A stretch of 55,476 bases of DNA. Source: an uncultured Ruminococcus sp. GTDB taxonomy: Bacteria; Bacillota; Clostridia; Oscillospirales; Acutalibacteraceae. Positions 21,712 to 49,746 of the stretch are shown one piece after another. The DNA lies in the NCBI GenBank assembly GCA_902762395.1, contig CACWOA010000001.1, forward strand, positions 1-55,476, written 5' to 3'. Numbering within the stretch: position 1 is the stretch's first letter; every line of letters starts with the position of its first letter. Position numbers and translations under genes: made by a program. Under the pieces are notes generated by a model. It did not search any database and was not told the DNA's origin. It saw nothing but the letters and a program-made list of their open reading frames with translations.

Positions 21712-21768
21712 AACGAAAAATATCCCGGTGCATCGCCACACGCACCGGGATATTTTTGTTATTTTTTC
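21712..21768. terminator. Bidirectional rho-independent terminator
   Basis: A perfect 14-bp stem, aaatatcccggtgc / gcaccgggatattt, has an A-run upstream and T-runs downstream. It serves the mreB remnant on the plus strand and the methyltransferase on the minus strand. Confidence 0.85.
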
Positions 21769-22397
21769 ACAGCCACTGTATGATTGGCATATGTTTGCCA
21801 ATCAGGTTCATAGTCATCCACCGCCTGGTTGCCCCACATATCCCAGTCGTCACGATTGCCCCGGGCAAACAATTCCAGCCGCGGCGCAGAAGAACAAGCC
21901 TCTATCAGATCGACAAATTCATCCGGCTTTCTGCTGTGTTCCCGCTTCACTGATCGTATCAGGTTCACCTGTGACCTCCCCGGCTGCAAAGTGCGATTTT
22001 TGTCTCCTTTGACGCCAAAAAGCAAAATCTCTGTCACATTGCGAAAATAAAAGCCAACACCTCGACCATCAGGCTGACCGTCTTTTCTTACCTTTTCCCA
22101 TACCAGATTGGTTTTGTACATAAACCCCCACGCCTTCATCACCGCAAGACCTTCGGGCAAAAGCGCATTGGGCACCCATAAATATAAATGGCATTTTTCT
22201 TCCGCCACCTCTGAAACAGGCAGGGACATAATGCTTTCCAAATCCATCGTGGTATATCGGTTCAGCCGCTTATGCTCCGGCGCAACTTTGCCGGTTCGAT
22301 TCTGAAACTGCCACGGAGGATCCGCATAAATCGTGCGGTATTTTTTCCCATCTGTAAACGCCCTAAAATCGGCAATCGTTTCTTCTAAAGTTGTCAT
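21759..22397 (-). CDS. MT-A70-family DNA methyltransferase (DPPW motif; probably N6-adenine)
   Basis: It contains IYADPPWQF, then HLYLWVPN and a C-terminal SRKPDEF, the pattern of MT-A70-type enzymes. The ATG at 22397 lies 1 nt after the endonuclease stop and has a GAGGA RBS. The track start at 22412 is TTG. Confidence 0.83.
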   Translation of the reverse strand: MTTLEETIADFRAFTDGKKYRTIYADPPWQFQNRTGKVAPEHKRLNRYTTMDLESIMSLPVSEVAEEKCHLYLWVPNALLPEGLAVMKAWGFMYKTNLVWEKVRKDGQPDGRGVGFYFRNVTEILLFGVKGDKNRTLQPGRSQVNLIRSVKREHSRKPDEFVDLIEACSSAPRLELFARGNRDDWDMWGNQAVDDYEPDWQTYANHTVAVKK

Positions 22398-22398
22398 T

Positions 22399-23073
22399 TC
22401 AGCAGTCCTCAATACAAGATTTCTTTATTCCGACAGCCAATATCGGACAGCCGCCGTTTCTGCGCGAATCCAAACGGTCGATGAGTTTTCCCATCCAGGT
22501 AGTAGAAGCGCCGTATTTCTTCAAAATACCGATATGGCGGAATATATCGTTCAATTCTTCTGATCGGGTTACAATAATGCCCACATCAATGATGCCACAG
22601 TCAAAATAAGTCCGCATCGCCAATAAATCACGGTCAAACGTCTGATCCTTGCTGTTCCATTCCAAGTCAAACGCCACTTTGTTCTTTAAAAAATCAATAT
22701 TGTGACCGTCAATATAGCCGGTAATCATTTTTTCTTCAAAAGGCTGATCGGAAAATCTTCCTCTCCGCTGTGCGACCTGGCGGGGGTACATCTTCACCAG
22801 CAAATCCCCGGTGATTCTGATTTCCCGCCAACCGAGCGGATACAATACGCTGTCAAATTTTTTGGGAATCGGACTTTCGTTGCCGCCTGCCATTTTCAGG
22901 TCATCAACGGAAATCACCAATTGGTTGAGACACATCTGAATCTCTTCCCACTCTTGCGGGAAAGCATCACTCAATATTTCTAAAGCGTGACCGTAATTAT
23001 AAAACTCATATTTTCTGCTTAATTCATCAGAAATTGGCACCAAATTTCCTTCACCTGCCGCCGTTTGATTCAA
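22399..23073 (-). CDS. BglII/BamHI-fold type II restriction endonuclease
   Basis: The N-terminal YNYGHALEIL..W.EI resembles BglII YNHADEIL..WKEI. The segment IDFLKNKVAFDLEW aligns with the BglII catalytic segment IDFGKRDTLVEVQF. The start is uncertain: TTG at 23073, or GTG at 23040 which follows GAAGGA. Confidence 0.7.
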   Translation of the reverse strand: MNQTAAGEGNLVPISDELSRKYEFYNYGHALEILSDAFPQEWEEIQMCLNQLVISVDDLKMAGGNESPIPKKFDSVLYPLGWREIRITGDLLVKMYPRQVAQRRGRFSDQPFEEKMITGYIDGHNIDFLKNKVAFDLEWNSKDQTFDRDLLAMRTYFDCGIIDVGIIVTRSEELNDIFRHIGILKKYGASTTWMGKLIDRLDSRRNGGCPILAVGIKKSCIEDC

Positions 23074-44947: not shown

Positions 44948-45060
44948 TGAAAATTTTCGCGCCGCTTCGCGGCGGAAGGGATGATAGATGCGCCTGCGGC
45001 GCATTGGATTAGGCGCTATCGCGCCATGATTAGATGATTAAAAGATTTGACGATAACAGG

Positions 45061-46557
45061 TCACAGATTCAGCCAGAAAGCCGGGCGAACAGCGCAGAAG
45101 TTGTCATCGACACTGTCGCCGTCCTGATCGACGTAGCCACCCGTATCCACGTCCGCGGCGTCACTACCACTGAGGCCGGGCGAGCGAAGCCACCACCAGC
45201 CAGAGCGATCCCTGAAATCGCGACCTTTTGCATGAGCGTAATCGGTTGTATAGGCTTTTCCGTCGGAATAGGACGAGAAATATGTTTTCGCTTCCTCTAT
45301 GCTGAGCGCAAAGATTTTGTCCTGCGTGGCGTTTCCTCCGCTTGTTCCGTATTCGGGATTATCAGGATTCTGATTGGTAACGGTCGCTATTTTTGCCTGT
45401 TCGCTCGTGCTGAACGCTTCGTTCAGAAAATCGTTGTTCATCCACTGGCGCAGCGTGCAGGTTTCCCATGTAACTAATACTCCTTCTTCATTATATGGCA
45501 CATAATCCAGCAGCTTCTCCGAAATGACAAGCGCCTTGCCATTCTTCACGGCAAGCACACGCCATCCTATCGGCTGTATCTCGCCGTCTGTCCCCTGCTT
45601 ATAATTGCCGAATGTGAAATGATCGCCGACGGAAACACTGTCAAGCTCGGAGAGTGGTTTAACACTTATTGCATTGCCTACCGCCCATATACCGCCCACA
45701 ATTGCCACGACCAGCACCAAAGCGACCGTGACGATCAACGGCGTATGTTTGAATTTGACCGATTTTGTCGCGGCGGGTTTATTGGGCGCTTGTATGGGGT
45801 TACTGTAGTTATAAACAGGCAATGCGGGATAAACAGATGCAGCGGCAGACTTTTGTGGTTTTGGCGCAGCATTGGCTACCTGAGTCGGCTGAGATGACAC
45901 CGTCGAAGCGGTCTGCCCGACCGATTGCGGCACGGGAACGGGTTCCGGCTTTGGTTTTGGTTCCGGCTTCGGCTTGAGTTCCGGCTTCGGTTCTGGTTCC
46001 GATTTAGGTTCCGGCTTCGGTTTGGGTTCCGGTTTAGGTTCGGCTTTTGCCTCGGTGGGCTGAAAGGTCGGCGACGGCGGCTGGGGCGGCATTCCCTGTA
46101 TCAGGTGAAATTCCGTTACCATTGTCTGCGTGATGCGGTCAACCGAACATCCCGCCACCTTGATGCCTTGCAGACGCGCCACGTTCCAGTACCAGATTTT
46201 CAGGTCGTCATGAACGTCCTCCGGGTGTTCATAGGGATCCAGAGCATCCAGCCACACCACATAGCGTTTTTTGCCGTACATTTTCGCCACATCAAATTCA
46301 ATGCGCACCCATGTATCATTCGCCGCAAACAGGGCTTTGGTGGCAAAGATAATAACCGCTTCACTGGCTTTGATGTTCCGGTTGATTTCTTTTTCCCACA
46401 GTTCGCCCTTTTCGATGCCGTAATCGTACCACATCGGCACACCCATTTCGTTGAGCCTGCGGGTGATAGCGCCTACCCGTTCGGCATCCTCGCTTTTGTA
46501 GCTGATAAAATACCGCTTGCCCTCCAAAACAGGCATAAATCCAAAATTGGTCGCCAC
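45061..46557 (-). CDS. TIR domain / (E/K)P repeat / TM helix / DUF6273-like ectodomain protein
   Basis: The N-terminus has KRYFISYKSED...GVPMWYDYGI..GELW...VIIFATK...WVRIEFDVA (TIR hallmarks including the conserved Glu). The repeat run is EPKPEPKPKPEPK. The TM helix is LIVTVALVLVVAIVGGIWAVG. The C-terminal pattern is WRVLAVKNGKALVISEKLL...TWETCTLRQWMN...WWWLRSPG...VRPAFWLNL. The start is GTG, 7 nt after GAGGTG. Confidence 0.8.
   Translation of the reverse strand: MATNFGFMPVLEGKRYFISYKSEDAERVGAITRRLNEMGVPMWYDYGIEKGELWEKEINRNIKASEAVIIFATKALFAANDTWVRIEFDVAKMYGKKRYVVWLDALDPYEHPEDVHDDLKIWYWNVARLQGIKVAGCSVDRITQTMVTEFHLIQGMPPQPPSPTFQPTEAKAEPKPEPKPKPEPKSEPEPKPELKPKPEPKPKPEPVPVPQSVGQTASTVSSQPTQVANAAPKPQKSAAASVYPALPVYNYSNPIQAPNKPAATKSVKFKHTPLIVTVALVLVVAIVGGIWAVGNAISVKPLSELDSVSVGDHFTFGNYKQGTDGEIQPIGWRVLAVKNGKALVISEKLLDYVPYNEEGVLVTWETCTLRQWMNNDFLNEAFSTSEQAKIATVTNQNPDNPEYGTSGGNATQDKIFALSIEEAKTYFSSYSDGKAYTTDYAHAKGRDFRDRSGWWWLRSPGLSGSDAADVDTGGYVDQDGDSVDDNFCAVRPAFWLNL
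45931..46060. repeat. Degenerate 6/12-nt tandem repeat inside the TIR gene
   Basis: On the plus strand there are repeated ggttccggcttcgg-type units. They encode the (E/K)P linker. Confidence 0.8.
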
Positions 46558-46608
46558 AAGGGTTCACCTCGTTTTCTCGTGTTTTCGTGTTTCGGACTCT
46601 TCTTTGTC

Positions 46609-46637
46609 ATTATACCATGCCTTATGACCGTTTGCAA
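46609..46637 (-). promoter_or_regulatory. Consensus extended -10 promoter of the TIR gene
   Basis: On the minus strand it reads TTGCAA, a 17-nt spacer ending in TGg, then TATAAT. Confidence 0.7.
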
Positions 46638-48366: not shown

Positions 48367-49746
48367 TCAGCGCCGGTTTTTCTTCTTACGGAAAAGCAGA
48401 ATGACCCCCGCTGCCGCCGCCAGCAATAAAGCCGAACTGCCGCCTATGGCAGCCGTTTTTTTATTCCAGCCGAAAAGCCCCTTGGCGTCGGACGGACTCA
48501 CCGCGTCAGACGCGCTCACGCCGTCGGACGTCACCCGTTCCTCCGTCACTTCGCCGCATACGGTGCAAACGCGCTGCTCGATGCTGCCCCCCGTTTCGCT
48601 CACGCGGTCGGTCGCTTCCCACGCGCCGGGCGTATGCTGCGGCGGGGTGTAGCTGTCCGTCCAGTGATAGCCGCATCCCTCGCAGGTATGCACCGTGTAC
48701 CCCCAGTCGGCGCAGCCGGAAGGCGTGACCGTTTCGGTGTAGCGCGGCGCTTCGCACGTTTCGGGCAGCAGCACCTTGGTATAATTGAAAGTCTCGTCGC
48801 GCTTGAATTTCGCCTTGTTGTCGGTGTAAGTGCGGCAGCCGGACAGTCTTTCTCCGATAATGCCGGTGCAATACGCTCTGCGGTCCTTATTGTGTTCAAA
48901 AAAGTGAATCTGCCCCTGCACGCGATTGCCTGTGACATCCTTGTGGGAATATTTCAGACCGCAGTGATAAAACATACCCACCACGCCGCCGTTGTGGACA
49001 TAGCCGTGACAGGAGTCATAGCCGTCAATCGTCACGCTGCAATCGCGGATGGTCGCCATGCCGCAGGACAGCACGCCTCCCATGAACTGTTCACAGTGTC
49101 CGTTGCGGTAGCGATCTTCAAAAACCAGCTCCACATCGGCGCTGCACTTGTCAAAAACGCCCCAGCCATAGCCCGCCAGACCTGCCACGCCCGCGTTGAT
49201 GCCGTGATTGATCATATGCACCCTGCCCTGCACGCTGCAATTGGTGAAGGTGCTGTCATCCGTGCTTCCCGTCAAAATCGCCGCAAAGCAATGGGTATCG
49301 CTTTCCATGGAAATCTCCGCGCCGACAATGTTCAGATTCTTGACGGAGGCTTTCTCCACCGCCGAAAAAAGCCCGGCAAATTCCGTTTTATACACTTTCA
49401 GATTACCGTCTTTGGTGGTTCCCGTCTGGGTTCCCGCCTTGGTGACGCGCAGATTATAGAGCGTATGCCCTGCCCCGTCAAGGGTGCCTTTAAAGACGAG
49501 CGGCTGCCAGTCAATCCCGCCCAGGTCAATATCCGCCGTCAGGCGGTACGCGCCCTCCGGCGCGTCCGCTATGGCAAGCAGCCCCCGCGCATCGCTGATT
49601 TCGACAGCCTCCTGCGCCGCCGCTTCCGCCGCGGAAACAGCCCCTTCTCCGGAAGCATACACAACGGTCGGCGCTGCGCAAACCGCCGCCGCTGCCATCC
49701 ATAAGGCAAGGGCAAGCGCCGCTGTCTTGGAACCATTCTTTTTCAT
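48367..49746 (-). CDS. Secreted, C-terminally anchored protein with GLUG-like beta-helix repeats and a Cys-rich module
   Basis: It has a signal peptide and repeated AGLxG/GGVVG ... NC/DCSV units. The C-terminal module CEGCGYHW...CTVCG is followed by a TM helix and a KKKNRR tail. The family call is tentative. Confidence 0.6.
   Translation of the reverse strand: MKKNGSKTAALALALWMAAAAVCAAPTVVYASGEGAVSAAEAAAQEAVEISDARGLLAIADAPEGAYRLTADIDLGGIDWQPLVFKGTLDGAGHTLYNLRVTKAGTQTGTTKDGNLKVYKTEFAGLFSAVEKASVKNLNIVGAEISMESDTHCFAAILTGSTDDSTFTNCSVQGRVHMINHGINAGVAGLAGYGWGVFDKCSADVELVFEDRYRNGHCEQFMGGVLSCGMATIRDCSVTIDGYDSCHGYVHNGGVVGMFYHCGLKYSHKDVTGNRVQGQIHFFEHNKDRRAYCTGIIGERLSGCRTYTDNKAKFKRDETFNYTKVLLPETCEAPRYTETVTPSGCADWGYTVHTCEGCGYHWTDSYTPPQHTPGAWEATDRVSETGGSIEQRVCTVCGEVTEERVTSDGVSASDAVSPSDAKGLFGWNKKTAAIGGSSALLLAAAAGVILLFRKKKNRR

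Follow-up and report, generated by a model that had tools for sequence, protein, structure and literature searches.

To our knowledge, bacteria have no natural system of targeted protein hypermutation other than diversity-generating retroelements (DGRs), and the roles of the cellular targets of DGRs are largely unknown. A survey of cellular DGR targets described most of them as membrane-anchored binders. Here we describe a gene at positions 45,061–46,557 of a 55,476-nucleotide stretch of DNA from an uncultured Ruminococcus sp. (contig CACWOA010000001.1; the whole stretch is hereafter called the window). It encodes a 498-residue protein with a TIR domain, a proline-rich linker, a transmembrane (TM) helix and a DUF6273 domain that ends in a putative variable region (VR). 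The gene starts at a GTG codon and lies, like all its features given below, on the reverse strand. An earlier note on this DNA, made from the sequence alone, had regarded DUF6273 as a domain without known function, which is out of date: its published fold is C-type-lectin-like, and it is a DGR target in the receptor-binding proteins of gut phages, with the VR at the C-terminus. The window gene shares with these phage targets the domain family, the placement of the VR at the C-terminal end of a lectin-like domain, an AAC/AAT-rich template and, in its relatives, an arrangement of avd, template repeat (TR) and reverse transcriptase (RT). It differs in being chromosomal and set among housekeeping genes rather than encoding a phage tail or receptor-binding protein, in the tethering of its lectin domain via a TM helix to a predicted cytoplasmic TIR domain, and in the lack of a DGR in cis.

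Fusions of DGR-diversified C-type lectin (CLec) domains to TIR, kinase or protease modules are known from cyanobacteria, Thiohalocapsa and MoxR-vWA/STAND conflict systems, and were discussed as “antigen sensors” or regulatory proteins in Thiohalocapsa PB-PSB1 (PMC10907252), cyanobacteria (PMC7517822) and VMAP/iSTAND systems (PMC7159879). As in the window protein, a hypervariable CLec domain is found at the C-terminus, N-terminal signalling or effector modules include TIR and Ser/Thr kinase domains, and the proposed role is the sensing of invaders. Those CLec domains are, however, of the FGE-sulfatase type, usually occur within STAND NTPase or MoxR-vWA systems and belong to Proteobacteria and Cyanobacteria, whereas the TIR-(TM)-DUF6273 proteins are minimal, have neither an NTPase nor partner genes, come from gut, rumen and digester Clostridia and are membrane-spanning in half of cases. 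No description of TIR-(TM)-DUF6273 proteins, nor of DUF6273 as a cellular sensor, was found in the literature. New here are the different lectin sub-family, the minimal two-module layout without an NTPase, the membrane-spanning version and this host range.

The window protein also shares the TIR fold and the Glu of a WxxxE motif with bacterial TIR NADase defence proteins (AbTir, BtpA, ThsB, SpbK, TIR-STING and the SPARTA TIR-APAZ proteins), and SpbK likewise joins sensor and TIR on a single polypeptide. It differs from these proteins in that no ThsA, STING, SAVED or Argonaute partner accompanies it, and its sensor is a predicted extracytoplasmic, hypervariable lectin domain. The overall layout recalls the eukaryote-like Ser/Thr receptor kinases of Firmicutes, namely the PASTA kinases PrkC/PknB, and animal Toll-like receptors, single-pass proteins with a binding domain outside and a signalling domain inside that are thought to act on clustering. 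The Toll-like layout in reversed order, to which the earlier note had drawn attention, holds as an analogy only, as the ectodomains are not homologous and the TIR domain is N-terminal. Our preferred interpretation, to which we give a probability of roughly 60%, is a surface sensor with a hypervariable ectodomain and a TIR NADase as its output, activated by clustering and with a VR diversified by a DGR family.

A DGR-type variable region at the end of the gene

The most informative feature of the gene is a DGR-type VR at residues 445–494 (45,076–45,225; the last ~45 codons), recognised by allele comparison and codon-position bias. Within it, residues 453–494 (45,076–45,201; ~42 codons) form a core that is homologous to a TR by alignment. 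The C-terminal pattern quoted in the earlier note (WWWLRSPG...VRPAFWLNL) brackets this region, a point which that note had missed.

In the syntenic strain L001, about 97% identical to the window across a 10.7-kb flank, the TIR region is 99–100% identical and the 3′ flank 100% identical, but the final ~145 nucleotides of the gene show about 65% DNA identity. Strain L039, with an identical YicC protein, carries a different VR, directly 3′ of which more than 340 nucleotides are 100% identical. Among other strains with identical YicC, the L040 contig starts inside a third VR, and the L038 and L041 contigs end just beside the gene; these three metagenome contigs come from other samples and break in or beside the VR, as assemblies typically do where a population varies. 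At least three different VRs are present among strains with identical YicC, with a razor-sharp boundary, and the 3′ flank of the window gene is conserved also in non-syntenic loci. Amino-acid identity of other VRs to that of the window is 33–60%, whether the TIR domain is 99% or 54% identical, hence VR identity appears saturated at the level of the scaffold, independent of evolutionary distance.

Among ten VRs of the window sub-family, 38 hypervariable columns were detected: 18 at the first codon position, 17 at the second and 3 at the third. Such a bias is the opposite of neutral drift and is expected of AAC/AAT template codons. Hypervariability was seen at 27 of 31 adenine positions of a homologous TR, compared with 11 of 62 other positions (p = 9.5e-11). 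Furthermore, three of six clusters defined at 90% identity (P0035, P0074 and P0120, all TM-less TIR-DUF6273 proteins) show up to eight residues per VR column (<=8) with a constant scaffold between. We consider it very likely that the window gene belongs to a DGR-target family and has a bona fide VR, and the window copy was probably rewritten recently.

Variability is not confined to the core. Residues 445–451 (45,205–45,225) vary between alleles yet lie 5′ of the homology to the TR of contig L042 (see below), and a second, milder variable patch at residues ~326–362 (~45,472–45,582) lies outside the TR-homologous segment. Possible sources of these patches are a cognate TR longer than the known one, a second surface that varies, or recombination.

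Template repeats and DGR cassettes in relatives

The template peptide inferred from the VRs of the window sub-family reads WWWLRSPGNNSNNAANVNKNGNINQNGNSVNNNKVAVRPA. A slightly idealised version of this peptide, with uncertain positions set to Asn, was used as a protein-database query and recovered 40 short Asn-rich open reading frames (ORFs), which are TRs called as genes, the best of them (P0369) being 98% identical to the query. On its contig, L042, a window-type but TM-less TIR-DUF6273 target is followed by a 130-residue Avd and then by this TR, which encodes the template as inferred from the VRs (WWWLRSPGNNSNNAANV...). The differences between VRs and the L042 TR, compared over 114 nucleotides with 37 adenines, fell on TR adenines in 20/21 cases for L018, 27/33 for L009, 25/31 for L005, 16/20 for L001, 19/24 for L002 and 20/29 for L039. 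For most relatives, 76–95% of VR differences were thereby at TR adenines. The homology of TR and VR stops at ...CGTCCGGCTT.

TRs of DUF6273-type DGRs sit in public databases as Asn-rich “proteins” of 42–76 residues (P0369–P0408), some of which are annotated as “DUF6273 domain-containing protein” (P0384, Lachnospiraceae), and P0393 (Anaerobutyricum hallii) is found on 49 contigs. TRs can be located quickly by looking for such mini-ORFs.

Cassettes with an RT were found in sister sub-families. A scan of GTDB genomes with the scaffold pattern gave 21 loci, one of which (L021) holds a true TR and RT. The L021 TR encodes WWWLRSPGNNQNNAANVNTDGSVNRNGDNVNNDNNAVRPA and diverges after it, and a 430-residue RT follows at once downstream, with YMDD and the DGR-typical LGNQTSQ motif and a Pfam RVT_1 match above cutoff. 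Of the 23 differences between this TR and the L010 VR, 22 fall on adenines. A metagenome scan with a guessed TR found a further cassette of avd, TR and RT (L028), whose avd matches NCBIfam DivGenRetAVD (E = 1e-10).

Remnants of DGRs adjoin several TIR-TM-DUF6273 genes. An avd stub lies directly 3′ of the gene in L008, and an RT C-terminus in L026. In L014 (2381–2986), also directly 3′ of the gene, the first ~67 avd codons are fused in frame to the C-terminal third of a DGR RT, from RYMDD, where a deletion has taken the TR and the RT palm and left a dead DGR. The target–avd spacer of these three loci and the ~110 nucleotides that flank the window gene on its 3′ side are homologous, and in L008 and L014 avd starts directly after this stretch.

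The cognate TR of the window gene would be expected to follow the nucleotide pattern GGCTGGTGGTGGCT[TC]CG[CT]TCGCC[CG]GGC-(AAY-rich)-GCTGTTCGCCC. No TR exactly matching the window VR was found in pattern scans of IMG/VR, GTDB genomes and metagenomes. Three pattern scans of IMG/VR (one for the VR/TR scaffold, two TR-specific) returned no TR and one VR, in a host flank, which suggests that the DGRs serving the TIR-DUF6273 family are cellular, not viral. A blastn search of the VR against 50,697 phage records returned nothing, and a homologue search with RT fragments, together with look-ups, returned truncated RT genes only and no matching TR.

Domain organisation and predicted topology

All motifs quoted in the earlier note are present (FISYKSED at residue 17, WVRIE at 83–87, KFKH at 268, WWWLRSPG at 454 and VRPAFWLNL at 490), and its assignment of a TIR fold was borne out. 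The TIR domain, predicted to be cytoplasmic, covers residues 15–150 (46,108–46,515), with a match to Pfam TIR_2 (PF13676) at residues 17–101 (45 bits, cutoff 28, E = 1.8e-11). An AlphaFold2 (AF2) model from a 55-sequence alignment was confident, with the flavodoxin-like TIR fold and alternating strands and helices (predicted local distance difference test, pLDDT, 84; predicted template modelling score, pTM, 0.82). Foldseek matched this model to PDB structures with a probability of 1.00, the top matches being SARM1, RUN1, AbTir, BtpA, PdTIR and SPARTA TIRs.

The Glu of WVRIE, which the earlier note had placed at the catalytic position, is Glu87 (codon 46,297–46,299). It is invariant in 55/55 aligned homologues, as are F17, S19, Y20, L35 and A91, and in a profile search of PDB sequences W83 and E87 aligned with the W and E of the AbTir motif WTNYE, which we take to be W204 and the catalytic E208. 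The conserved WxxxE motif, placed where helix C begins, and the matches to NADase-type TIRs suggest that the TIR domain is of the enzymatic, NAD-cleaving type. The N-terminus MATNFGFMPV is common to many homologues, in agreement with the GTG start. The first TIR strand is preceded by an FGF motif (residues 5–7; 46,539–46,547), which scarcely varies within two of the three TIR sub-types (MATNFGFMPV and PRVYFGFDA) and may serve in interaction or regulation.

Residues 151–270 (45,748–46,107) form a disordered linker containing the (E/K)P repeats reported earlier, which are real and correspond to an 18-nucleotide tandem repeat in the DNA (45,923–46,054). Linker length depends on the strain, L001 having gaps of 78 alignment columns inside the repeats and 72 just after them with divergent sequence between, and homologues share only 19–43% identity in this part. 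The proline-rich linker is predicted to lie on the cytoplasmic side and is then not a wall-spanning stalk.

The single TM helix (residues 274–294; 45,676–45,738), directly preceded by KSVKFKH, is the sole strongly hydrophobic segment (Kyte-Doolittle peak 2.8), and a signal peptide is absent from the protein. Four K/R residues occur in the 15 residues before the helix and one after it, and the N-terminal flank is likewise the richer in K/R in 47/53 TM-bearing relatives, with the reverse in 0/53. Both the helix and the positive-inside signal are kept in orthologues of the window gene. In a homologue search, at least 15 clusters (proteins of about 575–840 residues) had Ser/Thr kinase domains in front of this same module of TM helix and DUF6273, a classic receptor-kinase layout, and elsewhere DUF6273 follows a signal peptide or lipoprotein leader. 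The charge bias, the kinase sisters and the export of DUF6273 in other proteins together predict a TIR domain inside and a DUF6273 domain outside the cell, so that the window protein is probably a single-pass N-in/C-out membrane protein, the topology that the earlier note had proposed.

The predicted extracytoplasmic domain covers residues 339–497 (45,067–45,543), where Pfam DUF6273 (PF19789) matches over model positions 1–171 of 172 (106.7 bits, cutoff 23.5, E = 1.5e-30), in agreement with the first assignment of this domain. An AF2 model of residues 300–498 reached a pLDDT of 96.6, and the C-type-lectin-like fold is taken from the literature. Its only significant PDB match was the DUF6273 N-terminal domain of the Thomasclavelia ramosa IgA peptidase (9qa6), and its matches in BFVD were gut-phage DUF6273 proteins. 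In a full HMMER scan with a limit of E<=1e-30, DUF6273 was present in 3,621 cluster representatives, many of which carry the domain several times in tandem.

Architecture and contexts of the family

Architectures were counted in the 91 cluster representatives, out of the top 120 hits, that combine TIR with DUF6273. A TM helix was detected in 46 of these and none in 45, and both domains of the latter proteins would be cytoplasmic. Three distinct TIR sub-types were distinguished, each with TM and TM-less forms, and one genome (RUG198) encodes three TM-less paralogues. The logic of an outside sensor, as put forward in the earlier note, stands as a prediction for the window protein but not as a general rule. 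Other N-terminal modules on VR-bearing DUF6273 include Ser/Thr kinases, a zinc-ribbon-TIR-TPR region of ~1,100 residues, TPR-rich regions and plain export signals. The relatives are from metagenome-assembled genomes of Oscillospiraceae, Ruminococcus and Christensenellales, which are gut, rumen and digester Clostridia.

The gene had been described as solitary, and indeed five differing genomic contexts among relatives share no conserved partner. The varied modules and the lack of a conserved partner gene suggest that DUF6273 with its VR is a portable, mutable binding module that is combined with different outputs, whether within the cell or outside it. A window-like TIR-TM-DUF6273 gene in L029 lies in a mobile-element-like region (VapE, SNF2, VRR-NUC and helix-turn-helix genes) with two dynamin-like GTPase genes near. 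The TIR-TM-DUF6273 gene of L031 is followed by a second, DUF6273-only gene of 215 residues.

Expression signals and neighbouring genes

A ribosome-binding site (GAGGTG, 46,565–46,570) was read from the sequence 7 nucleotides 5′ of the GTG start. Further upstream, a consensus scan found a promoter-like TTGCAA-17-TGnTATAAT with an extended −10 element (46,609–46,637; 10/12 matches plus TG), which is identical in the syntenic strain L001. The conserved 3′ flank (44,956–45,060; fold z = −2.3) contains three GC-rich hairpins 38–108 nucleotides past the first base of the stop codon, with GAAAAUUUUC directly after the last hairpin, and may be a terminator and/or a DGR homing element. No terminator was called 3′ of the gene by the consensus scan. 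The suggestion in the earlier note that the gene has its own promoter is supported by the conserved promoter-like site, and its own terminator in part, the hairpins being present.

Downstream of the gene lies yicC-remA-gmk-rpoZ-priA, and on the upstream side a 202-residue small membrane protein is followed by a NAGPA glycosidase. As had been noted, there is no ThsA/SLOG/SIR2-type neighbour among these flanking genes: no ThsA gene (SIR2/SLOG or Macro) of a Thoeris system was found beside the TIR gene, and ThsB models matched only at E of about 0.007–0.03. No Thoeris, CBASS or Argonaute partner lies near the gene, and NCBIfam gave weak generic TIR matches only, without defence-system membership. 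An exact look-up of the window protein returned no record, although other proteins of the same contig are on record.

Elsewhere in the window, a 459-residue protein without a Pfam match (48,367–49,746, reverse strand) has a signal peptide and, towards its C-terminus, Cys-rich repeats and a TM anchor. Its identity to the counterpart in L001 is only about 75%, compared with 94–97% for its flanks. A 113-nucleotide direct repeat (17,569–17,681/21,594–21,706) was considered as a TR/VR pair and rejected, as its differences are not adenine-specific and no RT is present. The two copies are 92% identical, the first being the 3′ end of mreB and the second a non-coding remnant 4 kb downstream, and between them lie genes for an extracytoplasmic function (ECF)-type sigma factor, a 646-residue DUF4179-like putative anti-sigma protein and a 398-residue ORF without a Pfam match. 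The repeats look as if they flank a 4-kb insertion that duplicated the mreB tail. Next to this insertion, an MT-A70 methyltransferase and a BglII-like endonuclease adjoin each other as a type II restriction-modification pair (21,759–23,073, reverse strand).

Proposed mechanism and alternative explanations

According to our preferred interpretation, an Avd/RT cassette would copy an AAC/AAT-rich TR with adenine-specific errors and overwrite the VR. This rewriting would randomise ~20 residues of a binding site and keep the scaffold WWWLRSPG..AA.V...G...Q.G..V....VRPAFWLNL. A multivalent ligand outside the cell, for which a phage particle or another cell-surface structure is the most plausible candidate, would then cluster the ectodomains, and this would draw the TIR domains together. 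Known TIR NADases need self-association, and a flexible tether on the cytoplasmic side is in keeping with clustering as the mode of activation, less so with a rigid conformational relay. The assembled TIR domains would hydrolyse or cyclise NAD+, with growth arrest, abortive infection or a nucleotide signal as the outcome; NAD depletion or signalling is the output that we infer. A phage particle is the most economical guess at the ligand, because gut phages use the same domain for receptor binding and the output is a TIR domain. Glycans, immunoglobulin and neighbouring cells are further candidates.

Several observations weigh against this interpretation. RT, Avd and TR are all missing from the 55-kb window, hence the window copy looks like a remote (trans) or recently orphaned DGR target. 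The VR of L037, a strain from another sample with identical YicC, is exactly that of the window, so the window allele is stable in that strain. The window VR is also the poorest fit to the L042 TR of the loci listed above, with 21/35 differences (60%) on adenines (p = 6e-5). The other 14 of the 35 are wobble positions and TTC-TGC codons near the 3′ end, which suggests that the window VR either stems from another TR or later drifted. No VR variation was seen in the P0106 kinase cluster or the P0032 cluster, which appear frozen. The gene neighbourhood is housekeeping and not a defence island, and PADLOC matched no defence system, giving only weak, generic TIR matches. Moreover, with half of the family TM-less, extracellular sensing would not be the ancestral or only mode.

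Many of these points would also suit a once-diversified and now fixed surface lectin or adhesin for a constant ligand (a glycan, mucus, IgA or another cell), in which the TIR domain is a scaffold or low-level signalling module rather than an immune effector. The window without a DGR, the static VRs of some clusters, the allele shared with L037 and its many non-adenine differences from the known TR, and the housekeeping neighbourhood would all be expected, as would the decayed DGRs that adjoin the genes of relatives. A survey preprint, furthermore, assigns adhesion or carbohydrate binding to the majority of membrane-bound cellular DGR targets. We nevertheless regard such a fixed target as unlikely, given that at least three VRs with a razor-sharp boundary occur among strains with identical YicC, and that Glu87 and WxxxE are invariant in 55 homologues, arguing for a retained enzymatic TIR.

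Less probable still is an intracellular-type phage sensor (SpbK/Avs-like) with an incidental anchor. The role of the family would then be that of its TM-less members, whose hypervariable lectin domain would bind a phage protein and activate the TIR domain, and the TM form would be derived and would meet the same class of ligand, virion proteins, on the cell surface or while phage DNA is injected. The TM-less state of 45/91 representatives, the occurrence of all three TIR sub-types in both forms and the lack of a TM helix in the most actively hypervariable clusters (P0035, P0074 and P0120) and in the cis target of L042 point in this direction, and DGR-diversified cytoplasmic “antigen sensors” with TIR or kinase modules are a published concept. 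The TM helix and positive-inside signal of the window protein are, however, clear and conserved in orthologues, and this alternative differs from a clustering-activated surface sensor in emphasis, not mechanism.

Diversifying selection and recombination among paralogous DUF6273 cassettes, with no retroelement involved, might seem to account for the wobble positions of the scaffold that also vary between alleles (CTT/CTC, CGC/CGT, CCC/CCG), for variable patches outside the TR-homologous core (residues ~326–362 and 445–451) and for the extreme abundance of DUF6273 modules (3,621 representatives, E<=1e-30), but this explanation is highly improbable given that codon positions 1–2 vary with position 3 nearly fixed, that variability is concentrated at TR adenines (p about 1e-10), that real avd-TR-RT cassettes with the predicted template exist and that VR identity saturates at the scaffold level whatever the distance.

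Implications for the family

TIR domains are an output module common to the immunity of bacteria, plants and animals. The family described here joins DGR hypermutation with TIR in its simplest form, a sensor, an optional membrane helix and a TIR or kinase domain, in abundant gut and rumen bacteria. It also offers natural controls, as TM and TM-less forms, TIR and kinase outputs, varying and frozen VRs, and intact and decayed DGRs all occur within it, which makes both the sensing by a cellular DGR target and its consequence testable. Signalling across the membrane by the TM form, if it occurs, would make it one of the rare bacterial immune effectors that respond to an extracellular trigger. More tentatively, and with a good deal of doubt, the family may represent a minimal, anticipatory immune receptor of gut and rumen Clostridia. 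A retroelement would keep rewriting an outer antigen-binding site, and the binding of a phage particle or foreign surface would be passed on through the membrane, by clustering, to a TIR NADase, with the soluble and kinase-linked sisters making up a repertoire of sensors. If this were true, one polypeptide would join antibody-like receptor diversification with a Toll-like TIR output.

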